The notes under the pieces were generated by a model, which made no database searches, was not told the DNA's origin, and saw only the letters and a list, made by a program, of their open reading frames with translations. Source: Candidatus Sulfurovum profundilacunae (GTDB lineage Bacteria > Campylobacterota > Campylobacteria > Campylobacterales > Sulfurovaceae). Taken from it: a DNA stretch of 46,114 bases. Location: NCBI GenBank assembly GCA_047689495.1, contig JBEWPY010000001.1, positions 1 through 46,114 of the forward strand, in the 5' to 3' direction. This document shows positions 6,619-30,378 of the stretch, one piece after another. Numbering within the stretch: the first letter of the stretch is position 1; every line of letters begins with the position of its first letter. The position numbers and the translations under genes are program-made.

Positions 6619-7278
6619 TTAATAAGCAAATTTATAGCCGCGGCGACGTACCGTATGAATCACCTGGAACCCAAGAATCTGCTTGAGTCTTTTTCTGATC
6701 TGGTTGATCGCTACCTCTACTGTATTGTCACTGACATACTCAGGCTCTTCCCAAAGTGCATTGATGATCTCATCTTTGGAAAACACCCTCTTCTCACGCA
6801 GGGCAAGATAAGCAAGGATATCAAAAGTTTTTCCGTTCAGAGAGACATTCTTATCATCATATTTAATCTTTTTATTGGCAATATCGATGACCAGCTTGTC
6901 TACCTCAACTTGTGTGCCAAAAAGATGTCTCATGTTTGCAAGAACCCTTGCTGCGATCAGGTCAGGTTGATCCGTATGATCACAGATCACATCGTCTATA
7001 CTCAGCTTAAAAAACTCAGACTGCTGTTTAGGATTGGCAGTAAGAATCATAATCTTTGTTTCACTTTTCTTTTTCTTGACTTCATTAACATAACGTTCAA
7101 GCGAAAAGTGCACGCCCTCATCTACGATGACAACCAGTTCATAATGTCTAAAATCCGTAAAGTTTGTTGCATCATACATATCTTTCGCATTATCTACGAT
7201 ACATATGAAATATTTATCTAATTCTTTTTCGAGTTCATTGACGTATTCATCGTCAAATCCAACTGTCAGTATTCTCAT
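6619..7278 (-). CDS. OmpR-family response regulator, HsrA (HP1043)/CosR-like, atypical receiver
   Basis: C-terminus 'LWEEPEYVSDNTVEVAINQIRKRL...TVRRRGYKFAY' closely matches the HsrA/CosR winged helix; receiver domain degenerate; no adjacent kinase. Confidence 0.8.
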   Translation of the reverse strand: MRILTVGFDDEYVNELEKELDKYFICIVDNAKDMYDATNFTDFRHYELVVIVDEGVHFSLERYVNEVKKKKSETKIMILTANPKQQSEFFKLSIDDVICDHTDQPDLIAARVLANMRHLFGTQVEVDKLVIDIANKKIKYDDKNVSLNGKTFDILAYLALREKRVFSKDEIINALWEEPEYVSDNTVEVAINQIRKRLKQILGFQVIHTVRRRGYKFAY

Positions 7279-7592
7279 ATTTATACTACCTATTATTAAT
7301 GTACAAAGAATGAACCAAACCTTAAAGTTTGTTCGATTTCTTTATTTAGTGATAGATTTATAGCAAAAACAAGCTTATTTAAAAATAAAACTAAGGTTAT
7401 ATTAAATTTTAATGAGGATTTTTTCATCTATTTATAAAAAAACAGAAGAGATATCTCATCATAAGTGCTTTTCCTGCTTTGATTGACACATATTTTGGTA
7501 CAGGATCTTATTCCATAAGCCAGTCACAGAGTAAAGCCCTGTGGCCTTATGTTAAACTGTCTGGTTCTTTCCGGCGGAGAGCCCGCGCACCT

Positions 7593-8663: not shown

Positions 8664-9203
8664 CTATTTGATGTACGCCTTGATGATCTTCTGATCGAAG
8701 ATTGGTCTGTTCATCCTGCGATCAACATCTACATTTTCAAGTGTACGTACTGCCTTCTTGCCTGAAACCACTTCACCGAAAATCGTATGTCTCCCGTTTA
8801 AGTGAGGGGTTGGTACGGTTGTAATAAAAAACTGGCTTCCGTTTGTATTTGGTCCGCGATTTGCCATCGCCAGCAAAAAGGGTCTGTCAAAGACAACGTT
8901 GGGTGCAAACTCATCTTTAAACGGCTCTCCCCAAATAGATTCTCCACCTCTTCCGGTACCGGTAGGATCACCGCCCTGGATCATGAATTTTTTAATAATT
9001 CTATGAAAGATCAACCCGTCATAATATCCATTCTTCACATGCGTCGTAAAGTTTTCTACGGCTTTGGGCGCAATATCGGGAAATAGCTTAAGTTCGATCT
9101 TGCCAACATTGGTTTCCATAACTACGATCGGGGAGTTCCCCTCCGCCTGTAGCTGCAACCCACAGAATAAGAGTGTAACAATAAGTAATTTTTTTAACAT
9201 CAT
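8664..9203 (-). CDS. Cyclophilin-type peptidyl-prolyl cis-trans isomerase, exported
   Basis: '[22 protein letters not shown]', '[18 protein letters not shown]', 'HTIFGEV'; signal peptide. Confidence 0.95.
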
Positions 9204-9209
9204 GCCTCC

Positions 9210-9512
9210 TTACGATTCAATTACTTCATTCGCGCATTTATCAATCTTAAGCTCTTTGAGTATTTTTTCAAAGAAGTCACCGCTATCTCTCTGCGCATCA
9301 TCATCAAACTCTATATAGAGTGCCTGCTTCTCTTCTGTATGGTCTTTGGAATTGTCAAATACCTGGGGATTCATCCCGGTCTCTTTCTTCACTTTTTCGA
9401 TCGCTGCTTCGATCTCTTCTCTCAGCTCTTCGCTGCCGTCAAATGTCAGACTCATTCCTGCATAACACTCTTCCATTCTTACATTGGCATTGATTTGATC
9501 ACATCTGTCCAT
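9210..9512 (-). CDS. Hypothetical small acidic protein
   Basis: 100-aa ORF with GGAG RBS upstream, 6 nt from the next gene, plausible composition; no recognisable motif. Confidence 0.7.
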   Translation of the reverse strand: MDRCDQINANVRMEECYAGMSLTFDGSEELREEIEAAIEKVKKETGMNPQVFDNSKDHTEEKQALYIEFDDDAQRDSGDFFEKILKELKIDKCANEVIES

Positions 9513-9614
9513 TTACTTTACTCCTTGGTCTTTTACTCTTTCATTATAACGTATATAAGGTAAATAAATATCTTAAAACAGGGCTATATGATGATGCACG
9601 GATAAGGGTAAGGT

Positions 9615-11141
9615 TCATCTGGCATAAGCCGCTGCCCTTGTCTCTCTGATCACATTTACTTTTATTTCACCCGGATACTGTGTCGTTTCCTGTATCTCGT
9701 TCGCAATCTCCCTGCTCAGCAGAACCGCTTCACTATCTGATATTTTTTGAGCATTTACAAATACACGTACTTCCCTCCCGGCATTCATAGCATAAGCTGC
9801 GGTAACCTGTTCTTTTTTTGCAGCTATTCCCTCTATCTCTTCTATACGTTTCGTGAAGCTCTCAAGCACTTCACGTCTGGCACCCGGCCTGGCTGCAGAA
9901 AGTTTGTCTGCGGCACACACTGCCGCAGATTCTACAGAGTCGGGTTCTTCGTACCCATGGTGTGCATAGATCGCATTGATCACCGTCGGATGTTCATGAT
10001 ATTTTCTGCAGAGCTCTGCTCCTATCTCTACGTGAGAACCTCCTCTCTCCTGGGTCAACGCTTTGCCGATATCATGCAGCAGTCCCGCACGAAGGGCAAG
10101 CTTCTCATCGCCGCCCATGTTGGCAGCCATCACTTTGGCAAGGTTTGCTACTTCAAGTGTATGTGCGAGGGCATTTTGTCCATAGCTTGCTCTGTACTTC
10201 AAGCGCCCCAGCAGACGAACCAACTCTTCAGGCATAGGGAAAAGGCCCAGGTCGATAAGTATATTTTCACCCTCTTCATACGTCTTTTGTTCGAACTCTT
10301 TTTGAACCTTTTCATAAACCTCTTCGATACGGGCCGGATGAATTCTTCCATCTTCAACAAGTATCTCTATCACCCTTGTAGCGATGGCACGCCGGTATAG
10401 GTTGAAGGAGCTTACTACGATCACCCCCGGTGTTTCATCGATGATAATATCCACACCGAGTATCATCTCCAGTGACTTGATATTGCGTCCCTCTTTACCG
10501 ATGATACGTCCTTTATGCTCATCGCTTGGAAGCGTAATGGTATTGATAAGGCGCTCTCCCGCAAACTCTCCGGCATAACGCGTGGTTGCCTGAGCCAAAA
10601 TATAGTTAGCCTTTTTTTCACCCTCTTCTTTTGCCTGTTGTTCATATTTGCGTACAATATTGGCAACATCTGAGCGGCTTTGCTCTTCCACTTTCTCTAA
10701 AATATATGCTTTCGCCTCTTCCTGTGTCAGCGAAGCAATATTCTCCATCTTTTTTACAGCTTCCATCATCGTCTCTTGCTTTTCGGCTTCCAGATGTTCA
10801 ATCTTTTTTCTTTCTTTTTCCAAAGCAAGATGCTGCTCTTCTAAAAGTTTTTCTTTTGTTTCAAGCTCTTTTTGTTCAAGTATTAATGTACGGTTACGCT
10901 CATCTGCTTTTGATAAACGCTTCTGATATTCCCTCTCAAGCTCTATCTCTTGAGTCTGTATCTTTTTTTTGACCGCTTCCAAGAGGTGTTCAGCCTCGAA
11001 CTCTATCGCTTTTGCTTTTGCTTTACTCTCTTTTTCCACATAGGAAAATCTGTTTTTCGTATTATATTTTATCCATAAGTAACAGATCGCTGCACCTACA
11101 GAAGCTCCCGCCAATGCGGAAAGCCCTATCATTCCTACCAT
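9615..11141 (-). CDS. rny: Ribonuclease Y
   Basis: N-terminal TM, coiled coil, KH domain 'KGRIIGKEGRNIK', HD domain 'LLHDIGKA', 'SAARPGARRE'. Confidence 0.96.
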   Translation of the reverse strand: MVGMIGLSALAGASVGAAICYLWIKYNTKNRFSYVEKESKAKAKAIEFEAEHLLEAVKKKIQTQEIELEREYQKRLSKADERNRTLILEQKELETKEKLLEEQHLALEKERKKIEHLEAEKQETMMEAVKKMENIASLTQEEAKAYILEKVEEQSRSDVANIVRKYEQQAKEEGEKKANYILAQATTRYAGEFAGERLINTITLPSDEHKGRIIGKEGRNIKSLEMILGVDIIIDETPGVIVVSSFNLYRRAIATRVIEILVEDGRIHPARIEEVYEKVQKEFEQKTYEEGENILIDLGLFPMPEELVRLLGRLKYRASYGQNALAHTLEVANLAKVMAANMGGDEKLALRAGLLHDIGKALTQERGGSHVEIGAELCRKYHEHPTVINAIYAHHGYEEPDSVESAAVCAADKLSAARPGARREVLESFTKRIEEIEGIAAKKEQVTAAYAMNAGREVRVFVNAQKISDSEAVLLSREIANEIQETTQYPGEIKVNVIRETRAAAYAR

Positions 11142-14193: not shown

Positions 14194-15543
14194 ATGGCAA
14201 AAAGAAAAACTCTTTTTGAGTGTCAGTCATGCGGATTTCAGTCACCTGGATGGATGGGCAGATGTACTTCATGCGGCGAGTGGGAAAGTATGGTCGAACT
14301 TACTGCCGATCAAATCAAGTTTCTCAAAGAGATATCCTCCTCCGGCGCAGCACAAGCCATAACAAAAGCCAAACCTATTACGCAGATTGAAGAGGACAAT
14401 ATCTCCCATTTTGGTTCAGGCAGCAATGAACTTGATCTGGTTTTAGGCGGAGGGGTTGTTCCTGGTTCACTCACACTGATCGGAGGCAGCCCGGGAATAG
14501 GAAAATCCACCCTATTGCTCAAGATAGCCGGCAACCTTGCCAAAGAAGAGAAAAGAGTACTCTATGTATCCGGAGAGGAATCGGCAGGGCAGATCAAACT
14601 TCGTGCCAACAGGCTGGATGCCAACCACAACCATCTGTATCTGCTTTCAGAGATCAATCTCACATCGGTAGTCCAGGAGATCAATCAGGAAAACTACAAC
14701 TTCATTGTCATTGATTCCATCCAGACACTCTACTCTGATGAAACACCGTCCGCACCGGGTTCGGTGACTCAGGTACGTACGATCACTTTTGAACTCATGC
14801 GGATCGCCAAAAGCTTGCATATCCCGATCTTTATCATCGGACACATCACTAAAGACGGTTCGATCGCAGGTCCGAGAGTTTTGGAACACATGGTTGATAC
14901 GGTGCTTTATTTCGAAGGGGACAGCAACTCCGAACTGAGACTGTTGAGGGGATTTAAGAACCGCTTCGGATCGACCAATGAAGTCGGGATATTTGAAATG
15001 AACCGTGAAGGACTGGTTGATGCCAAGAGTATGGCCGGGAAGTTCTTCAACAAAGAAAAACTCCAGTCAGGTTCGGCGCTCACCGTCATTATGGAAGGCA
15101 GCCGCCCTATCATTGTAGAGATACAGGCACTGGTCAGTGAAGCTTATGGTCATCCAAAGCGCAGCTCAACGGGTTTTGACAATAATCGGCTAAATATGCT
15201 TCTCGCTCTGCTCGAAAAAAAGCTTGACCTGCCCCTGGGAACCTATGATGTCTTCATCAATATCTCAGGCGGCATCAAGATCCATGAACCTGCTGCCGAT
15301 CTGGCGATCATTGCCGCGATCCTCAGTAGCTACAGGGACAGAGAGCTGAGTGCACAAACCCTCTTTCTCGGAGAAGTGAGCCTTACCGGCGAGATAAGAG
15401 AGATATCCGGCCTCACCAACCGTCTCAAAGAGATGGAGACACAAGGTTTCACAAAGGCGATTATCCCAAATAAACCGCTTGAAGAAACCAATATCAAATG
15501 TTTTATAGCCAATGAAGTCTCCAAAGTTGTGGAGTGGATGTGA
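14194..15543 (+). CDS. radA: DNA repair protein RadA/Sms
   Basis: C4 zinc finger (CQSC..CTSC), Walker A 'GSPGIGKST', 'KNRFG', Lon-like C-terminus; ATG 14194 after AAGGA. Confidence 0.97.
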   Translation: MAKRKTLFECQSCGFQSPGWMGRCTSCGEWESMVELTADQIKFLKEISSSGAAQAITKAKPITQIEEDNISHFGSGSNELDLVLGGGVVPGSLTLIGGSPGIGKSTLLLKIAGNLAKEEKRVLYVSGEESAGQIKLRANRLDANHNHLYLLSEINLTSVVQEINQENYNFIVIDSIQTLYSDETPSAPGSVTQVRTITFELMRIAKSLHIPIFIIGHITKDGSIAGPRVLEHMVDTVLYFEGDSNSELRLLRGFKNRFGSTNEVGIFEMNREGLVDAKSMAGKFFNKEKLQSGSALTVIMEGSRPIIVEIQALVSEAYGHPKRSSTGFDNNRLNMLLALLEKKLDLPLGTYDVFINISGGIKIHEPAADLAIIAAILSSYRDRELSAQTLFLGEVSLTGEIREISGLTNRLKEMETQGFTKAIIPNKPLEETNIKCFIANEVSKVVEWM

Positions 15544-15764
15544 GTCGCGTAAATAATCGTGAACTGGCTTCACGATTATAGCGACGAAACCGGAGACGAT
15601 GTGTACTTGTGCACTGTCGTAGGCTGGGAGAACCGTTAAGAAAACAACCTTGTGCTTGCACTTTCTGTGAGAGCTGCTTGTTGTTTGTAGCTTCGAAGCC
15701 GGAAGCGTTGTGCAGAATGCACCACTGAAGGCAAAATGGAGCAACGAAGTGCGATCCGCGCAGG
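15544..15764. repeat. Further copies of the structured repeat family seen at 5818-5996
   Basis: TAATCGTGAA-CTGGC-TTCACGATTA hairpin followed by CGACGAAACCGGA..AGG; second degenerate unit CTTCGAAGCCGGA..GAAGG; TGGAGCAA..GCGATCCGCGCAGG resembles 5951-5973. Confidence 0.75.
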
Positions 15765-15794
15765 TAGAGATAACAACTGCTTGGTTTTCAATCT

Positions 15795-15845
15795 GTGGAT
15801 CTCCGCCCGCAGGAAAAGCCCTTGCGCACAAGCCCGAGGATGACG
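15795..15845 (-). repeat. CGTC-tagged REP-like palindrome (degenerate)
   Basis: Minus strand reads CGTCATCCTCGGGCTTG...GCGGAGATCCAC, the pattern of CGTC-family REPs. Confidence 0.55.
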
Positions 15846-15851
15846 GTCCAC

Positions 15852-18082
15852 TTAATACTTCATAGTCATACTTAAAAAGACCATACGCGGAGCACCTGTC
15901 TGGTAGGTACTTGATGTCGTAGATGCCGCTAAAACATTATCGGGTGTATTGATGGTCGCAATATACTTTTCATCCGTAAGATTTGTCATTGTCAGACGGA
16001 AAGAGGTGCTTTTTGAGCCTAAGAAGTTTTTACCTTATAGGAGATATCCATATCTACTACGGTATACCCATCCTCTTTCTGCGTGTTCTCTACGTCTCCA
16101 TAGCGGCTTGATGTATAACGCACACTTGGGGTAAAGACCCAGTTATCCAGATAGTAGGAGAGTGCGCCTTTCGCCATGAACTTCGGTGCATCCGGAAGCT
16201 GATTGCCCTCGATATCACTCGTAGTGGATGCGCTTGTTGCAAAATTCTGATCAAAAGAGTAGCGGTTACAAGAGAGTCCTGCCATAAATTCAAGATCCTC
16301 GGTAAGGAGACCATAGGCTGAGAACTCCGCCCCGTATCCGAACGCATCACCCAGGTTTGCAGGGTAACTGATATCCAGATCAGTGTCATAGATATTTGCC
16401 TGTTTATTCTGTACGAAAGAGACAAAAAGACATGGATGGAGTGTCACTGCCCCGATCGTTGTTTTATATCCAAGATCGATATTGTCAGAGGTCTCCAGCT
16501 CCAGATCGTTCCAGAGCTGCTGCAGCGTGATACCCTTGCCTTTAAACTTTGCATAGTTGCTTGTATAGGTCGGATAGAGGTTCACATCAAACCCGTACGT
16601 ACGTGAGTAGTCAAGGTAGAGAGCACTCCTCTCATCCAGTTTGTATGCAAGATAGACGGAGGGCAGCCAGGTTTTAAAGGTTTTTGACTCCACACTCCCC
16701 CATGAATCGTAGGTGGATGTAGCGATCGCCGTCTCATAATCGAGACTTGTATTGCTGTCTGTCAGATAGTTTTTGATCGAACTTACTTCAAAGTTCTGAT
16801 ACTGCAGGCCGACCGAGTAGATGAAGTTATCCACCTCGCCGCTTACTTCCACGAACGGCGACTGCAGGAGATGATCCTCTACCTCTGCCAGTGAAGCGTA
16901 TTTTTTAAAGTAGAGCTCTCCATCGTCATTCACCCCGTACATACGTCTGTCGGTCGGTGGTCCGGGAGGAAGCTGTCTGTGATACCAGTACCCTGCTTTT
17001 GCTTTGATCATTTCACTAAAGCGATGCGCATAGGCAGCAACGGCACCCATAAGATCATGGTCCATCTGCCAGTTGATCACGCCTTTTTTTGCAAAATTTG
17101 AAAAATAGATCTCCCCTTCATCCTGTTTGTAGTAGGGCTTGAAGGTGAAGCTGTCCTCAGCAGTCAGTCTGTAACGGACATCAGCAAAGATATTGGTCGT
17201 CAAAAAATCCTGCTTGTTAAAATCATAATAATCTACATCATTGGCTGATGTCGGCTTTGTTGTCTTATAGTCTTTATCGAAATAGCTGTCAAGATCCTCT
17301 ATCTCTGCATAACTCAGAGAGGCATAGTTGTGGTGTTCATCGCTGTTACGAATGGCATAGAGGTGCGCTTCAAAACGCTCATTTGGCTCATAGGAGAGCC
17401 CCACCATACCGTTGACCCGTTCAAGATCGCCTTCTCCTTTATATTTGTCGTTGGAGAGAAGAGAAAAAGAACCAAAAGCAGAAAAATCCCCTATTTCTCC
17501 TGTATCAAAACGTACAAACGATCTTTTAAAGTTTTCTGTACCGAATGACTGCGACAAAATAGCTCCGGCCTCTTTTTTCGGACGCAGGACATTAAGGTCC
17601 ACTTTTCCGATCAGGCTTGAGAACCCAAGGTTCTTGTCGACAGGAAGATACCCTTTCAGCAGATCGATCGAAGCGGTATTTTCCATATCAAGCATATGTT
17701 TTCCGCCCCCCGGATTTGAAGAGAGAGGCATACCGTTGATCATATATACCCCTCCCGGTCCGGATTGACTCTTTCCTCGGATACGGATCGGATCGTGAAA
17801 AGAAGGTTCATTGGAACCCACCGCATCTGCCGGAGTGAAATTCACCGACGGCGAAAATGCGATCACCGTGTAGGGGTTCATATTGGCATGGCTTGAGAGC
17901 GTTGCAATACTTTTGGGGGTGAAGTGCTCCCTGTTATCGGCCTTTGAGAGGTTATAATCCCCCCAAAAGAGGGGTTCTTCTTCTCCCATCACTTCATTGA
18001 CCACGATCGACTCTATACTTATTGGGTCTGCCGTCAGTGTTGCGGTTGCAACAAGTGACAAAATGATACTGCTTTTTTTCAT
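15852..18082 (-). pseudogene. TonB-dependent outer-membrane receptor, frameshifted near the 3' end (or sequencing indel)
   Basis: Signal peptide, plug 'IRIRG...YMINGMP...IDLLKG', beta-barrel pattern. ORF stops at 16019, but adding one A to the A5 run (T5 at 16027-16031 on +) restores 'VKNFLGSKSTSFRLTMTNLTDEKY...QTGAPRMVFLSMTMKY*' ending at 15852. Confidence 0.9.
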
Positions 18083-18111
18083 CCTACTCTTCTCCTAAAA
18101 TATGTTGTATC

Positions 18112-18137
18112 TCGTTGTATATTAATATATATAACGA
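18112..18137. promoter_or_regulatory. ModE-type operator
   Basis: TCGTTGTATA-TTAATA-TATATAACGA, one mismatch to the CGNTATATA-N6-TATATANCG palindrome, about 30 nt upstream of the receptor start. Confidence 0.75.
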
Positions 18138-18287
18138 ATTGTATAGCATTTTTCTTAAACTTTTTCAATCAGGCTTCTAGCATAGATCAAAAATTATCGC
18201 TGGGACTGTTTACTCAGAAGCAGGATCTAACATATTTTTTTTCAGGGAAGGAATCCTTTGTCTCATAATATCTGATATAATACTCCT

Positions 18288-18638
18288 ATGAAGATAGGGA
18301 CAGATATTATACAGATAGAGCGTATACGCAGAATGAGAGAGAAATACGGTAATAAGTTTCAAGAGCGTTTTCTCACCGGGAATGAGCTCGATGCCTCCAG
18401 AAAAGTTGAATCGCTTGCGGGGCTCTGGGCAGCCAAAGAGGCGATCGCCAAAGCTTTGGGGTGCGGGATCGGTTCCGAACTGGCTTTCCATGATATTATC
18501 ATTGCCAAAGACAAGAAAGGTGCACCCTATTTTGTACTCACTCCGGAAGCACAAAAAAAATATCCTGTCAAAACCTCTTCCCTCTCTATCAGCCATGACG
18601 GAGGATTTGCGATTGCGGTTGCAGTCATCATACACTGA
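18288..18638 (+). CDS. acpS: Holo-ACP synthase
   Basis: 'IGTDIIQIERI', 'AGLWAAKEAIAKALG', 'SISHDG'. Confidence 0.96.
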   Translation: MKIGTDIIQIERIRRMREKYGNKFQERFLTGNELDASRKVESLAGLWAAKEAIAKALGCGIGSELAFHDIIIAKDKKGAPYFVLTPEAQKKYPVKTSSLSISHDGGFAIAVAVIIH

Positions 18639-18739
18639 ACCTTTGAATATGTGGATTCTGGGGGGGGTGTTGCCTGAGATGTTTTTAAAGGTTCAGCATG
18701 AACGGGCAGAAAACTGCTCCCTCCTGCCTAAAACAATCT

Positions 18740-18765
18740 GTCGGGGTGAGGACACCCCGACCTAC
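18740..18765 (-). repeat. GTAG-tagged REP
   Basis: Minus strand GTAG-GTCGGGGTG-TCCT-CACCCCGAC; near-identical copy at 30422-30447. Confidence 0.85.
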
Positions 18766-18832
18766 ATTTATCAAAGCATTTTAATAAATGCTTACCAAAC
18801 CTGCTCACTGCTTCCTACTTACTCTCTATTTT

Positions 18833-19819
18833 CTATTTCCTGAAGTGTACCATCTTGAAGCGGTCACCCATCATCGTCGGTGCAATGAGCGTCTTGATCT
18901 TGTCTGCCTCTCTGGCATATACAGATTTATCTGCCTGTTTTGAAAACATTTCCAGGAGATCGATCAATCCAAAACGTATCAATGCCCTGGCCTGTGTTTC
19001 ATACTCTATCTCTTTAAACCCGGCATCCTGAAAAGCCTCAATCACATGTCCGAAGTTTACATCATAGGTGATATCGTCTTTTTGAAAAGAGTCGGCAAGG
19101 ACCAGTGCTTCATCAAAAAGCGGGAAAGTTTCATGTTCGCGGTAAACACGGATTGAGAAGTCGTTTCTGACATATTTTTCACCATAGTCAAAGCTGACAA
19201 AGTCACACTGCCTGATCCCTCCGGCCATCGCTTTTGCAAAGGCTTCATACCCCACGGCAATCTCGCCTTTCGCAAGATAGTGTTTTTTTGCCCACTGAAG
19301 TGTTTCCTCCGATGCTTTTTCCCAACTGATTTGATGCTCATTCACGGTGGCAACCTTTTCATCTTTGAACAGTTCACAGGGAAAGGCATCGAAGATTTCA
19401 TTCGCCACGACAAAGGCGTAGTCCACTTCAACTTCGGAGATATCATCAAAATGCGTGATCTCTATATCCTCGCCAAAACGCTCTTTGATATATGCCAGTT
19501 GTGCTTTCTGTACTTCCGGCTGACGTTCAACGATACCAAACTTGAGTGTTTTGATCAGCGTCGGATCACAGGTATAGAGCCATTGGATCATATCACAGAT
19601 CAGGTAACCCTGATGCGCCCCTATCTCTATCAGCCATCCGTTTCTCTCCGCCTTTCCTTCACTCAATAATTTGAAAAAGTGATTGGCGATACTCGCTCCA
19701 AAAAATCTGCTGGTACTTACAGCCGTATAAAAATCTCCGCTTTTGCCTATTGCCTTAAATTTTTTATAGTAGCCGTCCTTTCCATATAGCCATTCATACA
19801 TATACTCACTAAAGTACAT
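18833..19819 (-). CDS. SAM-dependent methyltransferase, MidA/NDUFAF7 family
   Basis: 'FSEYM...GYY', 'GDFYTA', 'IEIGA..G', 'ANEIFDAFP', 'DYG', 'DITYDVNF'; start at ATG 19819. Confidence 0.9.
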   Translation of the reverse strand: MYFSEYMYEWLYGKDGYYKKFKAIGKSGDFYTAVSTSRFFGASIANHFFKLLSEGKAERNGWLIEIGAHQGYLICDMIQWLYTCDPTLIKTLKFGIVERQPEVQKAQLAYIKERFGEDIEITHFDDISEVEVDYAFVVANEIFDAFPCELFKDEKVATVNEHQISWEKASEETLQWAKKHYLAKGEIAVGYEAFAKAMAGGIRQCDFVSFDYGEKYVRNDFSIRVYREHETFPLFDEALVLADSFQKDDITYDVNFGHVIEAFQDAGFKEIEYETQARALIRFGLIDLLEMFSKQADKSVYAREADKIKTLIAPTMMGDRFKMVHFRK

Positions 19820-21014
19820 TTTCCATCCTGGCATAAAGTTTCAATAACTCAATCTGTTTATCGATATGGTAAATTTTCTGGTCAAGTTTGCGAATCTTCA
19901 ATGTATTGAGCATCACTTGTGCATCCATAGTTGTTTTCTCTCCTGCATCGGCAAGATTTTTGGTTACCCTGTAAAGGCTTTGATAGACATTCACATCTTT
20001 TTTAGCCAGAGAGATCTTTCTGTCAAGGATATCAAGGTTATTTACAATCCACTGATACTCCTGATCTACCGCTTTTTCACGTTCTATGGCTTCTGTTGCC
20101 GCCTGAAGTTTCGCTACTTTGCTTGCCTCGATATCATCAAAACCATTGATATCCAACGGCATACTCACGGAAAAACCATAATTGTAGTACTCCTCTTCAT
20201 AAGCTGTCATTACCGGACTTGCATTTTCCCCGTCGATATAGGTCCCCTGAAGAGATACGGTTGGAAGATATTTCGCCCATGTGATCTTTTGGTTATGCTC
20301 TTCCTCAAGTGCCCTTAGCCTGTCTCTTTGCAGCTCCAGGTTTGCTGTTTTGTATGCCTCTTCTGTAACCAGTTTGAGGGCAGGAAGCTGCAAAGTATCC
20401 GGTTTTTTATCACTTAAGAGCATGAACTGCTGTTCAAGCGTCGACAAAGCCAGCTCCAGCTCCAGCAGCGAGGTCTCATCCTGGCTCTTTTTCAGTATCG
20501 CCTGATCAAGGAAACTGCTATCGAGTAATCCGGCATTATAACTGTCACGCTTCTGTCGGATATCGATCTTGTCATTTTTGATCTGATACTTCATTTTTTT
20601 CTGAAGCAATCTGTTTTTATGGATATTGAAAAGGATAGTTACCGCATCAGTGATCATCATGCGCTTTTGCAGCGTTATCTCAGCCCGGTTGGCTTTTCGA
20701 AGCGCCTGAGAATATTTAATCGCATAGTAAATCCCCCCGGAACGGAAGATCGGCTGATCAATACTCACCGTGAAGTTCGCACTATCCTTTGTCTCACCGC
20801 CATTGTACTGTGTACTATACGTTTTGCTGTAACGCAAATTCGTCGGGTTGATCCAGCTCTTTGAGAGTTTGTCACTCTCCAGTTCGTTGGTCTGCATCTG
20901 ATAATCAAAGATCATCGACTTGTTGGTTGAAAGGATATCGCCCAACTCATCTGCATAAGAGAGCATCGATGCTCCTATAGCCAATAACAATGTTCTCTTT
21001 ATGCTTTTTTTCAT
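19809..21014 (-). CDS. TolC family outer-membrane efflux protein
   Basis: Signal peptide; repeated 'VSIDQPIFRSGG' / 'YLPTVSL...GFSVSMPLD' strands and long helices typical of OEP repeats. Confidence 0.85.
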   Translation of the reverse strand: MKKSIKRTLLLAIGASMLSYADELGDILSTNKSMIFDYQMQTNELESDKLSKSWINPTNLRYSKTYSTQYNGGETKDSANFTVSIDQPIFRSGGIYYAIKYSQALRKANRAEITLQKRMMITDAVTILFNIHKNRLLQKKMKYQIKNDKIDIRQKRDSYNAGLLDSSFLDQAILKKSQDETSLLELELALSTLEQQFMLLSDKKPDTLQLPALKLVTEEAYKTANLELQRDRLRALEEEHNQKITWAKYLPTVSLQGTYIDGENASPVMTAYEEEYYNYGFSVSMPLDINGFDDIEASKVAKLQAATEAIEREKAVDQEYQWIVNNLDILDRKISLAKKDVNVYQSLYRVTKNLADAGEKTTMDAQVMLNTLKIRKLDQKIYHIDKQIELLKLYARMENVL

Positions 21015-22204
21015 TACGATTTAACCTCCCTGATAGCAGCTTCAAGACGCTTAAAGCCTTCATCGATCTCTGCTTTGGAGATCGTAATGCTCGGGAGAAA
21101 ACGTACCGTGTTACGTCCGGCTTTCAAGACCACGAGTCCCTCTTTCATCGCATTTTTGATCACTGCTCCCTGTATCTCGGCTGATCTTGCGCGCAGTCCT
21201 CTCATAAGCCCGATCCCTACCTCTTTTTCAAAGAGATTTTCATGTCTTTTTACAATATTCTGAAGCTTGTTTTCAAAGTATACAAGCGCTTCCCCGACTG
21301 CTCCGCTCTCATAATACTCCTCAAGAATCTCAAGCACGGCCAAGCCTGCCGCCGTGCTCAGGTAGTTACCACCAAATGTACTCCCGTGATCCCCGGCACT
21401 CAGTACCTCTTTATGTCTGGTCATCACAGCACCGATCGGTACACCGCCGCCCAGCCCCTTGGCAAGCGTGATAATATCAGGTTCGATCTCATAGAGGTTG
21501 GATGCCAGAAACTCACCGGTACGATAGACACCGGTCTGCACCTCATCGACGATCAACAGTATACCCTTTTCTTTAAGGTGTTTTGCCAGATTCTGTATCT
21601 CCTCTTTTGCAAACGGCTGCACGCCGCCCTCACCCTGAACCAGTTCGATGAGGACTGCTACCGTCTCGTCATCGATCGCTTTATAGACATCCTCTATACA
21701 CTTCTTATAACTGAATCCGGCAGGATAGGGAGAGAAGCTCGGTGAGTGAAAATTCTCCTGTCCCGTTGCCTTCACCGTCGTAATCGTACGTCCGTGAAAC
21801 GAATGCTCAAGCGTGATCACCTTGTAACGCTTGTTGTCAAACTTTGTCTCTCCGTACTTTCGCGCGATCTTTATCGCCCCTTCGTTCGCTTCGGCTCCCG
21901 AGTTTCCAAAGAATACACCCATATCATATCCGCTGAGCTCCACGATCTTCTGTGCCAGCTTTGCCTGGGGTTCGATCACCTGAAGGTTGGAGATATGGAT
22001 GATATTCTTTGCCTGATTGCAGATCGCCTCTGCCAGCTTGTCATTACTGTGTCCTACCGAATTCACCCCGATGCCCGAAGCAAAATCGATATAGTCCCTG
22101 CCGTTCTCATCATACAGCGTGGACCCCACACCTTTTACAAAGTTCGTATAATCACGTGCATAGGTTTGGAGTACATATTTTTTGTCTAATTCTTCTAAAG
22201 TCAT
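21014..22204 (-). CDS. argD: Acetylornithine aminotransferase (class III PLP)
   Basis: 'NSGAEANEGAIK', 'SFHGRT', 'VQGEGG', 'DEVQTG', 'AKGLGGG', 'HGSTFGGN'. Confidence 0.93.
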   Translation of the reverse strand: MTLEELDKKYVLQTYARDYTNFVKGVGSTLYDENGRDYIDFASGIGVNSVGHSNDKLAEAICNQAKNIIHISNLQVIEPQAKLAQKIVELSGYDMGVFFGNSGAEANEGAIKIARKYGETKFDNKRYKVITLEHSFHGRTITTVKATGQENFHSPSFSPYPAGFSYKKCIEDVYKAIDDETVAVLIELVQGEGGVQPFAKEEIQNLAKHLKEKGILLIVDEVQTGVYRTGEFLASNLYEIEPDIITLAKGLGGGVPIGAVMTRHKEVLSAGDHGSTFGGNYLSTAAGLAVLEILEEYYESGAVGEALVYFENKLQNIVKRHENLFEKEVGIGLMRGLRARSAEIQGAVIKNAMKEGLVVLKAGRNTVRFLPSITISKAEIDEGFKRLEAAIREVKS

Positions 22205-22307
22205 TTGATTTTCCGTTGCTTAAATATTGCTACTATTATAACAAAGTGATATTATACATCATCTTTCATAGCATACTCTTATAGAAAACTACAACACTCA
22301 CTATCAA

Positions 22308-23453
22308 CTATTGCACATCTTCCGAAGAGATGTCGATCCTATAACTTACATTTCTTCCAGCAGTTCCTTCCACTTGTTTGATACATCCCATTTCTAAAAG
22401 TTCAGCGATATCTCTTGATGCTGTTGTGGATGTGCTATTTGAGATACTCATGTATTTTTTTTTACTCAAATTGCCTTTGAAATTTTCTACTCCGATATCA
22501 AGTATGAAATTCAGTACTTTTATTTGTCTTGCATTGAGGCTTTTATCTCTGTATTTATCCCAAAACCTTGTTTTTAAAACAATGTGGTTGAGTTTGCTTT
22601 TTGTATCAAGCAGGGCTTTATGTAAAGTCTGCAAAAACCACTCACACCAATAGGTGACATTAAGATGATTATCCTCTTTTCTTATGTATCCCGTGCTCTT
22701 TTTCAGTGCTTTATAGTACCCCTTTCTGTCCTCATTGATTGCAGTTGACATTGAATAGAGTCTTGAAATTTTTGAGTTTTCTATTTTGGATAAAACGAGA
22801 TCTGTTATCGCTCTTGCGATCCTTCCGTTTCCATCTTCAAACGGATGTATGATGACAAACCAAAGGTGAGCGATAGACGCTTTGATCAAACTTGATTCAG
22901 CGGTATTGAACCAGTTTAAAAAGCTATCCATTTCATCTTCCAGATTTTCTCTCGGCGGTGCTTCATAGTAAACGGCTTCTCTGCCTGCATATCCGCCAAC
23001 GATTTGCATCGGATCGGGACCTCTGAAATCAGCGGTATGTATCTTATGCAAACCGCTATAGCCTTTGGGGAAAAGTGCATTGTGCCATCCAAACAATCTC
23101 TCCAGAGTTAAATCCTCTTCATAATTGGTATTGGCATCGATGAGGATCTCTACGAGATTATCAGTTTTTTCATCAAGTTTTTTACAAGCAGCCTCCTCCA
23201 GTCCAAATTTTTTGGCTATAGAAGCTTTCACGCTGTCACGATTGAGTATTTCACCTTCAATGGCAGCGGTATTCATTGCTTCATTTAAAAGTGCATCATA
23301 TTGTCTTTGAATGATATTCTCTTGATTCATTGTTTCGGTCAGGGCGATAAGGTAGCCTTGCTCAAGTGATATTTTCTGTATCAAGGCTTCTAGTCTGCTG
23401 GAATCATAGGTAAAGTTCGGATAGTCATCTTGCTGCCATATCCATTTTTTCAT
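22308..23453 (-). CDS. Fic family protein (N-terminal DUF4172-like region, C-terminal winged helix)
   Basis: Canonical motif HPFEDGNGRIAR; 'WIWQQDDYPNF' N-terminus; 'TASRDIAELLEMG' C-terminus. Confidence 0.93.
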   Translation of the reverse strand: MKKWIWQQDDYPNFTYDSSRLEALIQKISLEQGYLIALTETMNQENIIQRQYDALLNEAMNTAAIEGEILNRDSVKASIAKKFGLEEAACKKLDEKTDNLVEILIDANTNYEEDLTLERLFGWHNALFPKGYSGLHKIHTADFRGPDPMQIVGGYAGREAVYYEAPPRENLEDEMDSFLNWFNTAESSLIKASIAHLWFVIIHPFEDGNGRIARAITDLVLSKIENSKISRLYSMSTAINEDRKGYYKALKKSTGYIRKEDNHLNVTYWCEWFLQTLHKALLDTKSKLNHIVLKTRFWDKYRDKSLNARQIKVLNFILDIGVENFKGNLSKKKYMSISNSTSTTASRDIAELLEMGCIKQVEGTAGRNVSYRIDISSEDVQ

Positions 23454-23465
23454 AAAGTAGTTCCT

Positions 23466-23512
23466 TTATGGTACGATTATTTCTCCTAATCATACCATAA
23501 ACGGTATGATTA
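23466..23512. promoter_or_regulatory. Triple half-site operator-like array upstream of the fic gene
   Basis: ATGGTACGATTA (23468-23479), inverted TAATCATACCAT (23487-23498), ACGGTATGATTA (23501-23512). Confidence 0.6.
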
Positions 23513-23636
23513 ATCCAGCAAAGCATTTCTTTTTATACTATTTCTAAAATAGTCATTATCGGTTCTTAATAGCAACAGACTTCGGAAGTGAAAACTTTCA
23601 TAATCTCTGAAGCTTGCAAACAAGAGAAAAAAGCTT

Positions 23637-25421
23637 TTAAACCCTCTCCACCCTCACCTTCACTTCCTGATAACAGGCACTGTCACCCTCTTCGCTGATG
23701 ATCGATGGTGTAAGAAAGTTCAGTCCGACGGCATTACTTGTGATCACGGCACAATCCCCTCTGAGATACTCCGAGTTTTTCACTCCAAAGATATGCTCGC
23801 CGTGCTCAGAGCTTATTTTTACTTTTTCTCCATCCTGGAAACCATGCACCGGGTTAAGCTGCACCCTGTTGTCTCTCACGAACTGCGTATTGATCGACTT
23901 CTTTGACTTTGGCGAAAGAAGCCAGAGTGTTTCGTCTTTCGGCTTGTTTCTGCTCTGTTTTCTAAACTTGGTAAAACGTTTGGTATTGATAAAGTCATCT
24001 TCAAAGTCCTCGATAAACTCAAACGATTCATTCCCCTCTTCACCGAACCCTTCGCTGTATGGCAATTCCTCATAGGCAGGACTGACAAGCTCGCCGTTCT
24101 TCTCTTTGCATTGAGAGAGCCATGCATTGATATAGTATGCTTCGCTCTCCAGTCCGCTGAAACCGAACGCATCAAAAAGGTACCGGGTAAACTCATACTC
24201 ACTGATGCCGATATCAGAGTCTCTGATCTTATTCATGGGAGAAACATACTGATGTCCGTAACTGAGCCTCACATCCTCTTTTTCAAAGAATGTTCTGGCC
24301 GGGATCACAATGCGCGCCTTTTTTGATGTCTCATTCTCATACAGGCCGAAGTAGATAAGATTCTCCACGCCTTCAAGTTCTTCTCTCACCCTGTTGCTGT
24401 CGGGCATGGACTCGGCAGGATTTCCCCCCTGTACCAACACCGTATTAAAACGACTGAAAGGGGTATCTACTTTACGTACACGTTTGCAGGTTGTCTCAAA
24501 AGGATTGACAAAACCAAGCTTGCTGTCCCCCAGAAAGCTCACTCCACACCCCTCTTTTCCGAAGAGCCCAAGCACTGCTGCCAATGAATCTATCGCATGA
24601 AGCGTGTAAGAGCCTGTGGAGTACTTCTGAACCCCGGTACCGACGAGGAATACCACTTTTCTGTTACGAAGATAGTTCAATACACGCCCGAAGTCACCCA
24701 GGCTCATATCGATATGTTCCAGGATCGCCTTGATACGGTGCTCCCTGGTGTAGTCATAGAAATCCTCGAAGTCCGGGGCAAACTCTTCCATCCATGCTTT
24801 ATCTTCACTGTCTTCCATAAAGATAAAACGTGCGAACATAATCGCGACATAGTAGTCTGTACGCGGCGCGATCTGCAAAAAGATATCTGCCCTCCTGGCA
24901 ATCTCTGTACGTACCGGATCGATCACGATAAGCTTTTTTCCTTCAAGGTAAGGCATCAGGTGGGAATTGCTTACGGTAACATCTCTCCCCCAGACAACCA
25001 CTACTTCAGACATCTCTATCTGCTCAAGAGGAAGGGTTCTGTTGACACCTCTGCCCTCTTCTATCCCTGCTGCGCCTGCACCATCACAGAGACTCCCTTT
25101 GGTCAGGCTTCCCTCTATCTGTTCCATAAACAAGTCGGTAATTTCCTGCATGACGCCGACATTTCCCGAACCCCGCCACAGTAGACTTTTGTCCTCTTTG
25201 AAAGCTTCAGCTACTGCCGCCATCGCCTCTTCCATACTGACCTCTTTGCCGTCAACTCTGGGTACAGCGATACGCTCTGCATCATCCATATATTTGTTGA
25301 GTACGGCACAAAGCGCTCCATTGCCGGGAGGGTGGGTTTTATCACCCGCAATCTTTTCATTTTCAGCAATGATACGACAGGCATCATAGCAGTCAAGCCC
25401 GCATGCTGTCTTTTCAGCCAT
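23637..25421 (-). CDS. Molybdopterin (bis-PGD) oxidoreductase, uncharacterised cytoplasmic subfamily
   Basis: N-terminal Fe-S motif 'CGLDCYDAC...C', 'GSLCDGAG', 'VIDPVRT', 'NPAESMPD', 'NETSKKARIVIPA', C-terminal dinucleotide-binding domain; no Tat signal. Confidence 0.88.
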   Translation of the reverse strand: MAEKTACGLDCYDACRIIAENEKIAGDKTHPPGNGALCAVLNKYMDDAERIAVPRVDGKEVSMEEAMAAVAEAFKEDKSLLWRGSGNVGVMQEITDLFMEQIEGSLTKGSLCDGAGAAGIEEGRGVNRTLPLEQIEMSEVVVVWGRDVTVSNSHLMPYLEGKKLIVIDPVRTEIARRADIFLQIAPRTDYYVAIMFARFIFMEDSEDKAWMEEFAPDFEDFYDYTREHRIKAILEHIDMSLGDFGRVLNYLRNRKVVFLVGTGVQKYSTGSYTLHAIDSLAAVLGLFGKEGCGVSFLGDSKLGFVNPFETTCKRVRKVDTPFSRFNTVLVQGGNPAESMPDSNRVREELEGVENLIYFGLYENETSKKARIVIPARTFFEKEDVRLSYGHQYVSPMNKIRDSDIGISEYEFTRYLFDAFGFSGLESEAYYINAWLSQCKEKNGELVSPAYEELPYSEGFGEEGNESFEFIEDFEDDFINTKRFTKFRKQSRNKPKDETLWLLSPKSKKSINTQFVRDNRVQLNPVHGFQDGEKVKISSEHGEHIFGVKNSEYLRGDCAVITSNAVGLNFLTPSIISEEGDSACYQEVKVRVERV

Positions 25422-26833: not shown

Positions 26834-27388
26834 TTACGCTTTGGATTCGAGTGCGTATTTTTTTCCAAGCTCATAGGCTTTGAGGTTAAGTTCATGTACT
26901 TTTTTCGGTACCTTTGAAAGCATAGTATCGATCAGTGGCTGCTCTTCGATCGCATCCATATATTCATTTGCAATCGCCAGTGCAACAACCGACTGGGTAA
27001 TCACGTTTCCTACTTCTTCCTTCGCGATAGTAATGATAGGAATCTCAACGATATTCCATTTCTTTCTATCCTCATCATTTGGGAAAACAAGGTTTGGCTC
27101 GATCACGATCGTACCGCCTTCACGTACCCCGCTTTTAAAGAGTTGGAAACTCTTGTCTGCGACAGACAGCATAAAGTCGATCTGTCCCTCGGTCGCATAC
27201 GGATAGAAGATCTCTTTGTCATCCAACTGGATATCAACCACAGTCGGTCCGCCACGTACCTGAGAAGTATACGTCGCAGTTTTAATACCGTAACCACCTG
27301 TTTTGATCTTCGCTGCCGCGAAGATCTCACCCGCCAGAAGAACACCTTGACCACCGACACCGGTAAATCTCATTACAACTCTACTCAT
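26834..27388 (-). CDS. oorC: 2-oxoglutarate:acceptor oxidoreductase gamma subunit
   Basis: 'GVGGQGV', 'YTSQVRGGPT'; last gene of the oorDABC order. Confidence 0.93.
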   Translation of the reverse strand: MSRVVMRFTGVGGQGVLLAGEIFAAAKIKTGGYGIKTATYTSQVRGGPTVVDIQLDDKEIFYPYATEGQIDFMLSVADKSFQLFKSGVREGGTIVIEPNLVFPNDEDRKKWNIVEIPIITIAKEEVGNVITQSVVALAIANEYMDAIEEQPLIDTMLSKVPKKVHELNLKAYELGKKYALESKA

Positions 27389-27400
27389 GTTCTTCTCTCC

Positions 27401-28258
27401 TTATATTTTCTTAGCGAAATCGTCTTGTGTAATCTTGCCGCGCTTGCCTTGCTGTGCTGCTTTGATCTCTTCATACATCGTACAGTACTCTTCAGCTTCA
27501 CTGTCCTGCTTCAGGATACCTGTTGGAAGATAGTTCATCTGCTCCTCTTCGCTAAGCTGATCATACTTCTTCTTGGAGATTGTGATGCTGTCGATCCAGT
27601 CAAGGTTCTCCATCGCCGATTGCATTTTGTTCTTACGCCCGAGATTGATGTGGCAGTTAGAAAGCGCCTCTACAAAAGAGAATCCTTTATGCTTCAACGC
27701 TGATACAAATACTTTTTCAAGTTTTTTAGGCGCAGTGACGTTCTCTCTTGCTACAAATGATGCACCGGCAGCTTCAGCAAGCTTACAACCGTCAAACGTC
27801 GGGTCGATGTTACCCGCTTTTTGTGAAACGGTCCACATGCCTTTTGGTGTTGTCGGTGAAGTTTGAGAATTTGTTAGACCATAGATAAAGTTATTAATCA
27901 GTATCAAAGTCATATCAATGTTTCTTCTACATCCATGGATCGTATGGTTACCCCCGATCGCGAGTGCATCACCGTCACCTGCAACACATACAACCGTCTT
28001 ATCCGGATTTGCAAGCTTCACCCCTGTCGCAAAAGCGACAGTTCTACCGTGAGTTGTATGTACTGTATTAAAATCAATATAGGAAGAGAATCTTCCTGAA
28101 CATCCGATCCCAGAAACTACACAAACCTCATCTTTTGAGAGTCCCAGTTTGTCAACTGCTCTGATAAATGATTTTAGGATTACACCATCACCACATCCCC
28201 AACACCATAATGTTGGCATCTTTTCCAATCTTAAGTAACTATCATAATTAAATGCCAT
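27401..28258 (-). CDS. oorB: 2-oxoglutarate:acceptor oxidoreductase beta subunit
   Basis: 'WCWGCGDG', 'SGIGCSGR', TPP motif 'GDGD...NN'; start at ATG 28258. Confidence 0.94.
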   Translation of the reverse strand: MAFNYDSYLRLEKMPTLWCWGCGDGVILKSFIRAVDKLGLSKDEVCVVSGIGCSGRFSSYIDFNTVHTTHGRTVAFATGVKLANPDKTVVCVAGDGDALAIGGNHTIHGCRRNIDMTLILINNFIYGLTNSQTSPTTPKGMWTVSQKAGNIDPTFDGCKLAEAAGASFVARENVTAPKKLEKVFVSALKHKGFSFVEALSNCHINLGRKNKMQSAMENLDWIDSITISKKKYDQLSEEEQMNYLPTGILKQDSEAEEYCTMYEEIKAAQQGKRGKITQDDFAKKI

Positions 28259-28259
28259 C

Positions 28260-29399
28260 TTAGAATACCTCCTTAACCTTCTCAATAATATCCGCAGGAG
28301 AGAATGGGCGACCGTTTGTCTTGGTCAATTTCTCAATGTCTTTTCTTCCCATTGCTCTTTGGATCTCTTCAAGGTACTGTCCCTGATTAAGCTCTACAGA
28401 GAGTACCTTATCAAATTTCTGTCCAAGCTCATACATTCGCTGCTCTGGACTTGGCCATAATGTGATCGGCCTGAACATACCTACTTTCACACCTTCAGCT
28501 CTAAGTACATCTACCGCTTCTTTTATCGCAAGCGATGCTGAACCGTATCCGATCAAAAGGAACTCCGCATCGTCAACCCTATACTCTTCGTTCGATTCGA
28601 TCTCATCCGTGTGCTCTTCCACTTTTCTAAAGAGTCTATCGATCAGCTTTCTACAGGTTTCAATCTCTTCAGTCGGGAAACCCATTGCATCATGGTGAAG
28701 ACCTGTATAGTGGTATCTAAACCCCTGGAACATCGGGTTAAGGACTGCCGGCTCATCCTGCGCTACGCCATAAGGCCTGTAGTCTTCAGGTGCACCGTCA
28801 AATGTTTTTCTTGGTTTGATGCCTGCTTCTACCTCTTCGGCAGTCGGGATCATCGCCTTACCGTGCATATGCCCCAGTGTCTCATCAAGCAGTACGAAAA
28901 CCGGCTGCATGAATCTGTCGGCAAGGTTGAATGCTCTGACTGTTTCAGTATAACACTCAGCAAGATTCCCCGCACATACAGTGATCGACTTATAGTCACC
29001 GTGGCTTGGGTTCTTTGCCTGAGCAACGTCTCCTTGTGCAACACGCGTAGGAAGACCGGTTGACGGACCGCCTCTCATCACGTTTACAACAACCAAAGGG
29101 ACTTCTGCCATCTGAGCGAGGCCAAGGTTCTCTGCTTTGAGAGAGATACCGGGTCCCGAAGTAGCAGTCAACGTACGTATACCGCTCATCCCTGCACCGA
29201 TTGCCGCTGCAACACCTGCGATTTCATCTTCCATCTGGATCGCTGCTCCACCAACCTGAGGAAGAAGATCAGAAATCGTATGCATTACTTCACTTGATGG
29301 CGTAATAGGATATCCACCGAAAAATCTACACCCGGCGTCTACCGCTGCGACCGCAGCAAGGTCGTTACCGGTTGAAATAATCTCTCTTAAATCAGACAT
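28260..29399 (-). CDS. oorA: 2-oxoglutarate:acceptor oxidoreductase alpha subunit
   Basis: 'GGYPITPSSE', 'QMEDEI', 'ATSGPG', 'RGGPSTGLPT'. Confidence 0.95.
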   Translation of the reverse strand: MSDLREIISTGNDLAAVAAVDAGCRFFGGYPITPSSEVMHTISDLLPQVGGAAIQMEDEIAGVAAAIGAGMSGIRTLTATSGPGISLKAENLGLAQMAEVPLVVVNVMRGGPSTGLPTRVAQGDVAQAKNPSHGDYKSITVCAGNLAECYTETVRAFNLADRFMQPVFVLLDETLGHMHGKAMIPTAEEVEAGIKPRKTFDGAPEDYRPYGVAQDEPAVLNPMFQGFRYHYTGLHHDAMGFPTEEIETCRKLIDRLFRKVEEHTDEIESNEEYRVDDAEFLLIGYGSASLAIKEAVDVLRAEGVKVGMFRPITLWPSPEQRMYELGQKFDKVLSVELNQGQYLEEIQRAMGRKDIEKLTKTNGRPFSPADIIEKVKEVF

Positions 29400-29731
29400 T
29401 AGTTAGCCTCCTTATACTCTGCTGGCAATCTGTATCCGTTATTTGAAATTGCCTCTTGTCTTGCTTTCGCTGTATCAGTAAGCTTGGCAAACTTAAATTC
29501 GCTCTTCTCTGCAACATAAATCGCAAAGTCTGGACATGAAAGTTCACACTCGTTACATCCAATACATGATTCCGGTGCAATCACCGAGATCATTGCGCCC
29601 AATGTTGAACTTGGCTCTGCTTTCATTGAAAGTACACCTGCCGGACATGCATCCACACAGATATCACATGCTTTACATCTATCTGTGTTAACCCATACCG
29701 GAGTATTCGCCGGTGCTGTCATTGCTGCCAT
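29399..29731 (-). CDS. oorD: 2-oxoglutarate:acceptor oxidoreductase delta subunit (2[4Fe-4S])
   Basis: CKACDICVDACP and CIGCNECELSCP. Confidence 0.94.
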   Translation of the reverse strand: MAAMTAPANTPVWVNTDRCKACDICVDACPAGVLSMKAEPSSTLGAMISVIAPESCIGCNECELSCPDFAIYVAEKSEFKFAKLTDTAKARQEAISNNGYRLPAEYKEAN

Positions 29732-29892
29732 TTGTGCCCCTTTAATAGTTATTTATTAAGTGAGATTTACAATTCACTATGGTTGAGAATACAACACTTT
29801 GACTAATGACAGAATAAATAACGTAGTATTATTGTCACGATAAGCCTCTTTGTTACATTTTGAAGCAAGGTAAACAGGTTTATATGACGCTT

Positions 29893-30180
29893 TTAGCTAT
29901 TCATTTTTCCAATAGCGCATGAGATGAAACTTTTTGCTTCAGTTGTCTTGCTCTCCACAAACCCCATCTCCTCGTCTACCATCGGATAACCGAGCTTTTT
30001 AAGCACTTTTTTGAGTGACGGGACCTGCTGGTCAGCGATATCCAGACTGATCTGACGGGGCTCTTTCTCAAGATCAACTTCTACTTCGCCAAATTCGTCA
30101 AAAAGTTTTTTCTTAAGCGTCGAGGCACATCCGCCGCACTTGACATTCAGGACTTCAAAGGTCTGTTTATGACTCTTCAT
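29893..30180 (-). CDS. Heavy-metal-associated (HMA) domain protein
   Basis: 'NVKCGGCASTL', 'LKKLGYP', extra C-terminal Cys 'SFISCAIG'. Confidence 0.85.
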   Translation of the reverse strand: MKSHKQTFEVLNVKCGGCASTLKKKLFDEFGEVEVDLEKEPRQISLDIADQQVPSLKKVLKKLGYPMVDEEMGFVESKTTEAKSFISCAIGKMNS

Positions 30181-30378
30181 TTTATACCTTTTCCTTTAGT
30201 GATTTGTTACACTGCATTTTAACACTTGTAACTCTTGTCATCTTTTTCTCTTTTAATGAGAGACAATTATAGTGAAAAAATGTGTAAAGTGTGTAGATTT
30301 GTTAAAATATTTACTTTTGGTTCTCTTGGATGTTGTTTTCGTTTACTTGATAGTGGAGGATTAAAGTGAAGGAGATCT

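Follow-up and report, generated by a model that had tools for sequence, protein, structure and literature searches.

A family of TonB-dependent receptors (TBDRs) encoded behind ModE-type operators is, on balance, likely to import ligand-bound molybdenum when molybdate is short, and a frameshifted, partner-less copy of it lies in the window (the whole 46,114-nt stretch of Candidatus Sulfurovum profundilacunae DNA analysed here). The receptor gene of the window sits between acpS and radA, and the features of this locus are as follows.

nt 15852–16031, minus strand: out-of-frame C-terminal part of the receptor, about 56 codons, covering the final two strands predicted for the barrel and the terminal aromatic; 81% identical to residues 685–743 of the intact relative P0002
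nt 16019–18082, minus strand: TBDR, truncated frame of 687 aa (relatives 735–752 aa); PF00593, E 3e-27
nt 16026–16031, minus strand: one-base deletion in a short homopolymer (A run), the cause of the frameshift; polymorphic, the base being present in sequencing runs X2 and X6 and absent in X1 and X5
nt 18083–18113, minus strand: remnant 3′ end of a deleted periplasmic binding-protein gene, supplying the AGGAG ribosome site (from the alignment with the related locus L009)
nt 18113–18136, palindrome, no strand assigned: ModE-type operator, 1 nt downstream of the -10; second-ranking site of the genome, at 30.2 bits
nt 18138–18159, minus strand: likely promoter, TTTAAG (nt 18159–18154) and -10 TACAAT (nt 18143–18138), kept in loci L009 and L043

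The ModE-type operator and its counterparts in this genome

The palindrome CGTTGTATA-TTAATA-TATATAACG, with its 6-nt spacer, was read from the sequence at nt 18113–18136, just where the original prediction had placed it. It lies between the -10 region (minus-strand TATACAAT, nt 18145–18138) and the AGGAG ribosome-binding site (nt 18096–18092), with the ATG at nt 18082; this arrangement, and the 205-bp spacer to acpS, are likewise as predicted. In an alignment, L009 and L043 show the -10 hexamer and the upstream TTTAAG in matching positions. A generic sigma-70 scan did not call the promoter at nt 18138–18159, and it is by the Campylobacterota promoter pattern that we take TTTAAG and the -10 to be one. 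Fur, NikR and riboswitch control of the receptor were considered and dropped, none being found by consensus, pattern and Rfam scans: the best Fur consensus match in the promoter has 7 mismatches in 19 positions, TRWYA-N15-TRWYA (which we take as the pattern of a NikR-like box) is absent from the receptor spacer, and an Rfam scan of nt 15400–18400 at E up to 1 gave no match, so that no cobalamin or TPP riboswitch was detected there. The earlier reading, that neither a Fur box nor such a riboswitch is visible, agrees with these results.

Within the 1.79-Mb assembly there are four matches to the E. coli ModE consensus (taken from PMC545781) with at most 3 mismatches in 20, the window site among them, while 0.2 are expected from 10 local shuffles. 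When the genome was scanned with a matrix built from other genomes, the window box ranked second at 30.2 bits, and the top six sites comprised two at the start of a TBDR gene on contig C148, the window site and three at the mod operons of contig C146. Judged from sequence, the box is a genuine ModE-type operator. The original prediction had proposed looking for a modE-like gene and for the motif in front of mod genes, and both turned up. A full ModE, with HTH and two TOBE domains, is encoded on contig C62 (TIGR00637, 108 bits; TIGR00638, 133 bits; both over the cut-offs), and boxes precede both mod operons (C146, nt 16326–24135). The first of these units encodes an OprD-type porin, ModA, a TOBE protein, ModB and an ABC ATPase; the second a short porin-like fragment, TauE, a second ModA and ModB, and ModD. 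The C148 sequence (nt 1–330) is the start of a second, different TBDR behind two strong ModE boxes, the contig ending inside the gene, and it resembles the TBDR that closes the operon in relatives (44% over 48 aa).

Five other TBDR genes of the genome have no box, their best sites showing 6–9 mismatches (the start of the one on contig C55 is mis-called). In that C55 gene, near nt 7220–7350, the signal-peptide part is apparently out of frame at an A run, and another TBDR gene, on contig C34, is preceded upstream of nt 6409 by what we presume to be a sequence resembling a TPP riboswitch.

Damage to the window copy and loss of its partners

The window protein matches the C-terminal beta-barrel domain PF00593 with 97 bits against a cut-off of 27 (E 3e-27), scores 68 bits with the siderophore-receptor model TIGR01783, below the cut-off of 223, and has no match to the N-terminal plug PF07715, which is listed for many homologues; the plug was modelled at low confidence. 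TBDRs import their substrates with energy supplied through TonB, and the motif ESIVV, with conserved I26 and V28, is presumably TonB-box-like. The intact relative P0002 was modelled as a plug-and-barrel protein, with PqqU, FoxA and FecA as nearest folds (14–17% identity, E 1e-31). Sequence and fold searches of the PDB gave no close match to the receptor, and fold matches of this kind, obtained with a predicted model, say nothing about its cargo.

The receptor frame had been claimed to run to nt 15852. It stops instead at nt 16019, after 687 aa, because a base is missing near nt 16026 and the last 56 or so codons lie in another frame. An assembly error as the full cause was rejected, as the deletion is carried by the contigs of runs X1 (possibly the source run) and X5 and not by those of X2 and X6; the intact allele is thus found in two of the four runs. 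Strands 692–702 and 733–742 of the P0002 model fall in the part lost, and the terminal residue is Y or F in 118 of 119 relatives. Since the last two predicted strands and the terminal aromatic are missing, the window allele is probably inactive. A second genome of the genus (locus L154, G420:C48) has the same receptor split over two frames. Two further observations concern the surroundings of the gene: a short multicopy element, deeply covered and with loose ends in every run, lies between radA and the receptor (nt 15630–15790), and nt 26834–38609 hold a TCA-cycle cluster (2-oxoacid:ferredoxin oxidoreductase, succinyl-CoA synthetase, fumarase, two malate dehydrogenases and isocitrate dehydrogenase).

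Upstream of the gene, nt 18179–18118 align to nt 8677–8737 of L009, and nt 18113 onward to nt 9967 onward. Skipped in the window is about 1.2 kb of L009, comprising a second box and the binding-protein gene. As far as this alignment reaches, it shows a deletion of some 1.2 kb that brought the box beside the receptor and turned the last binding-protein codons into the ribosome site. Five further genomes of the genus carry the operon at this same position beside acpS. Neither the window locus nor the L009 locus has the downstream permease genes, and searches of the present assembly, which is 91% complete, gave no cognate binding protein, FecCD permease, globin or monooxygenase. The description of a stand-alone receptor therefore holds at this locus and fails for the native state, which in relatives is a binding protein–TBDR–FecCD–ATPase operon; on gene content and alignment, the window copy is an eroded remnant of such an operon.

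The central part of the gene (about nt 16600–17750) is identical to L009 over some 1.2 kb, while the flanking genes are 76–82% identical. Recent gene transfer was first favoured for this stretch and then doubted, since the read depth over it equals that of the L009-type population alone and run X6, which lacks that population, gives no coverage. These data suggest that chimeric assembly of co-occurring populations is at least as likely as recent exchange. A chimeric centre leaves the box and the family assignment unaffected.

The receptor family, its operon and its regulators

One search yielded 178 receptor homologues, those at 58–89% identity coming from Sulfurimonas, Sulfuricurvum and relatives; in another, 136 clusters reached E 1e-30. 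The original prediction held that molybdenum or tungsten import would suit a sulfidic, molybdenum-poor habitat; members of the family are also found in methanotrophs of soil and peat. Carriers make up 21 of the 401 genomes of the phylum and 10 of the 116 of the genus. The receptor belongs to a conserved operon, or module, across 61 loci, which are related to one another and partly redundant: a class III binding protein, TBDR, FecCD permease and ATPase, forming a type II ABC importer like MolBC-A. In the 29 loci that span 15 kb or more, a binding protein is encoded in 29, FecCD in 28, the ATPase in 26, TonB in 24 and a mod gene in 23, and these same loci hold a truncated globin (20), a luciferase-like monooxygenase (14) and ModD (11). 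TonB is co-encoded in the module, with ExbBD in some loci, and modE, modABC and nifQ often accompany it too. Many loci also encode methyltransferases and additional TBDRs, a single operon holding several distinct paralogues of receptor and binding protein, and TauE-family genes are present in 8 of the 61 loci. No chelator-synthesis gene was recognised among the annotated recurring neighbours.

A palindromic Gibbs search of module intergenic DNA from 21 GTDB loci, under a model that forces one site per sequence, recovered the ModE motif. It is present in 21/21 loci. Leave-one-out scores were 14–31 bits in the module and no higher than 5.8 bits in the flanks, which serve as control for the 20 loci that have them and are mostly coding. 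Among the nine other carriers of the genus, which overlap with the GTDB loci, all have the box at the operon head, with the binding-protein gene directly upstream of the receptor in eight; it is because the box is at the operon head that the scan finds few boxes directly upstream of the receptor. At three loci (L111, L112 and L158) receptor and box stand without adjacent ABC genes. Homologues had been expected either to keep the box or to sit among mod, tup or nif genes; their operons do keep it, and do lie among mod and nif genes. With ModE present, and the motif in front of mod genes and of orthologous receptor operons, the genomic findings that would have spoken against the original prediction did not appear. 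A chance AT-rich match, or a leftover box with no relation to the receptor family, is very improbable: the deletion did place the box beside the receptor and the allele is broken, but four sites were found where 0.2 are expected, and operon-head boxes recur in 9/9 genus carriers and 21/21 GTDB loci. Control of the receptor family by ModE has strong genomic support and is very probable.

ModE is encoded in 20/20 carrier genomes, against 278 of the 401 genomes of the phylum. For nifD the figures are 16/20 against 50/401, and 5/8 against 10/26 within family f7, so that the enrichment among carriers is largely shared with their kin; a strict tie to nitrogen fixation was rejected, as 4 of the 20 carriers, and the present genome, show no nifD (nitrogenase was not found in this assembly). 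ModA is encoded in 24 of 25 carriers and MoaC in all 25; the present genome has NapA and MoaC.

Further neighbourhoods are linked to molybdenum, some of them outside Campylobacterota, where the range is taken from four plasmid records and the labels of Atlas clusters. At loci L109 and L115 nifQ heads the operon. On a Paraburkholderia plasmid (L130, nt 8704–10963) a truncated globin, a DUF2325 protein and a luciferase-like monooxygenase are encoded between nifQ and modBAC; the module globin is closest to PDB 4NK1. Alphaproteobacterial plasmids carry binding-protein homologues near modA, TOBE, msrPQ or molybdotransferase genes in three of the four loci viewed, with no TBDR. Plasmids of Methylocystis and Methylosinus have a TBDR–binding protein–FecCD–ATPase set and a convergent monooxygenase gene, with ModE-like boxes before both; these boxes are one base wider and weaker (4–5 mismatches in 20), and the OB3b copy stands without ABC genes. 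At L110 the receptor lies directly upstream of fdhD, a ModE-like HTH gene, wtpABC and selD; the module is ModE-boxed, and its binding protein (nt 16172–17194) is identical in sequence to PDB 4PAG.

Five loci (L116–L120) form a separate receptor clade, at 27–31% identity, in a 62-row FastTree with weak deep branches, built after dropping the redundant L101, L106 and L107 along with two thirds of the distant representatives. Their ModE scores are 1.9–11.6 bits, that is, they have no ModE boxes. The NikR-like pattern occurs in all five of their upstream regions against none of six from the ModE clade, and L116 adjoins a nikA-type ABC operon. The lack of ModE boxes, together with the nikA-type operon beside one locus, indicates that the receptor family is not molybdenum-specific. 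On these upstream sequences, the comparison suggests that the regulator, and probably the metal, differ within it. The family name alone does not fix the cargo, and the sister clade is both a useful control and a warning. It also lends weight to another reading, in which the cargo of the ModE-controlled receptors is a complex of a different metal (Fe, Ni, V or Co) needed when molybdenum is scarce, ModE control being secondary. The distant match of CeuE to the binding protein points the same way, as do three TBDR operons of A. vinelandii activated only without Mo and V (per the accessible text of PMC9542535). However, neither a Fur nor a NikR-like box was seen at the window promoter, and linkage to modABC, modD, TOBE and nifQ recurs in two phyla; we consider a different metal improbable.

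Candidate cargo, known systems and significance

From this context, the family probably serves molybdenum acquisition. For the cargo, an even chance is given to a ligand-bound molybdenum species that ModABC would not take, and this reading is ranked above bare or thio-molybdate, cofactor salvage and another metal. Tungsten, also put forward in the original prediction, finds little support in this genome, which has no match to WtpA or FdhD and only a weak one to PF12849; a single relative, L110, lies upstream of fdhD, wtpABC and selD.

The best PDB match of the module permease is MolB (2NQ2, E 1e-63), MolA matches the module binding-protein profile (E 1e-21), and CeuE is a distant match. The MolA oxyanion residues K221, R264 and Y301 (named after the accessible part of bioRxiv 10.64898/2026.10.15.759412, with a numbering offset of 21 that we infer) align to S, a variable residue and D in the module binding proteins. 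PDB 4PAG and a model of the L043 binding protein superpose with a TM-score of 0.89 at 38% identity. MolA and MolB being the nearest characterised proteins to the binding protein and the permease, the receptor might take bare molybdate, tungstate or thiomolybdate through the outer membrane at high affinity and feed a MolBC-A-type importer, the accessory enzymes stripping sulfur from thiomolybdate or being unrelated. TauE-family genes (8/61 loci) and the link of L110 to wtpABC would fit, and tetrathiomolybdate supports growth of M. maripaludis, according to the text available of PMC11484787. Nevertheless, uptake of a bare or thio-oxyanion is judged unlikely: the three oxyanion residues are not conserved, there is already an OprD-type porin as well as ModA, and operons with several distinct TBDR and binding-protein paralogues point to a number of larger ligands.

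Less likely still is salvage of molybdenum cofactor, pterin or another cofactor, derepressed at molybdenum shortage. The binding protein has a BtuF-like fold, the receptor is closest in fold to PqqU, which imports PQQ, and the combination of a phosphoribosyltransferase (ModD), methyltransferases and a flavin monooxygenase is reminiscent of gene sets that remodel cofactors; but the carriers show no evident cofactor auxotrophy, and the NifQ link points to free molybdenum for nitrogenase. Auxotrophy for molybdenum cofactor in particular was rejected, since MoaC is encoded in 25/25 carriers and in this genome. Ligand-bound molybdenum is favoured because the MolA residues are not kept, ModA and MoaC are already present, the receptors have paralogues and an oxygenase is encoded.

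Molybdate-bound ModE represses uptake genes, as stated in the accessible part of PMC11672702. In the intact relatives, molybdate-loaded ModE would cover the transcription start, and molybdenum shortage would free the promoter. The receptor, powered by the co-encoded TonB (and ExbBD in some loci), could then pull a molybdenum–ligand complex across the outer membrane, and the class III binding protein with the MolBC-A-related FecCD/ATPase pair would carry it into the cytoplasm. There the luciferase-like monooxygenase, methyltransferases and ModD may break or modify the ligand, the truncated globin possibly feeding oxygen, and the freed molybdenum would reach Mop/NifQ, nitrogenase and molybdopterin enzymes, NapA among them. 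Taken jointly, and held tentatively at somewhat below an even chance, the receptors would be the outer-membrane entry to a pathway devoted to scavenging molybdenum: TonB receptors and MolBC-like ABC importers would bring in molybdenum chelates (or thiomolybdate), a globin-assisted flavin monooxygenase would free the metal for NifQ/Mop, and the sister clade would have exchanged ModE control for NikR, a metal switch in the family.

One of the closest known systems is MolBC-A of Haemophilus influenzae (HI1470–1472; PDB 2NQ2, 3PSA/3PSH), which shares the type II ABC importer, the class III binding protein and the molybdate context. The available text of PMC4031551 describes it as a low-affinity importer of bare molybdate and names no outer-membrane receptor for it; unlike MolBC-A, the module adds a TBDR, TonB and processing enzymes, and does not keep K221, R264 and Y301. 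With the ModE regulon and ModABC of E. coli, as given in the accessible part of PMC545781, it shares the operator consensus and its repressing position, whereas the target here is a TBDR with a type II ABC system. The same architecture, a metal-repressed TBDR with a FecCD-type ABC importer for a non-iron metal, is found within the phylum in Helicobacter FrpB4 and NikH with FecDE/CeuE under NikR (PMC3856676, in the part available); regulator and predicted metal differ, the likeness being one of architecture, and the sister clade L116–L120 may be a nickel version of the module. An outer-membrane step tied to molybdenum status, with another regulator and other proteins in each case, is described in the accessible texts for the VnfA1-activated TBDR operons of A. 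vinelandii (PMC9542535) and for secreted ModA with IcmP of P. aeruginosa (PMC11734730). A 2018 survey (PMC6147048) counts only ModABC, WtpABC and TupABC as prokaryotic importers, and its main text, as available, does not contain the term 'TonB'. PDB 4PAG, titled a solute-binding protein of Sulfurospirillum deleyianum, is a structural-genomics entry with no function given, and a literature search for it gave no paper naming the structure. A ModE-boxed TBDR operon was not found described in the literature searched; most subscription journals, supplements and regulon databases were outside its scope, and an earlier prediction may exist.

The family bears on how molybdenum crosses the Gram-negative outer membrane and on how bacteria use molybdenum that is chelated or sulfidised. 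It deserves follow-up, while the window copy, being eroded, is a poor test object. In the family there are specific genes to test, hosts in culture (Methylocystis, Methylosinus and the 4PAG organism) and a binding protein whose structure is solved but has no function assigned to it. If the reading is true, many 'iron complex receptor' annotations would be corrected, and the family would explain by what route sulfur oxidisers and methanotrophs supply their nitrogenase and nitrate reductase with molybdenum.
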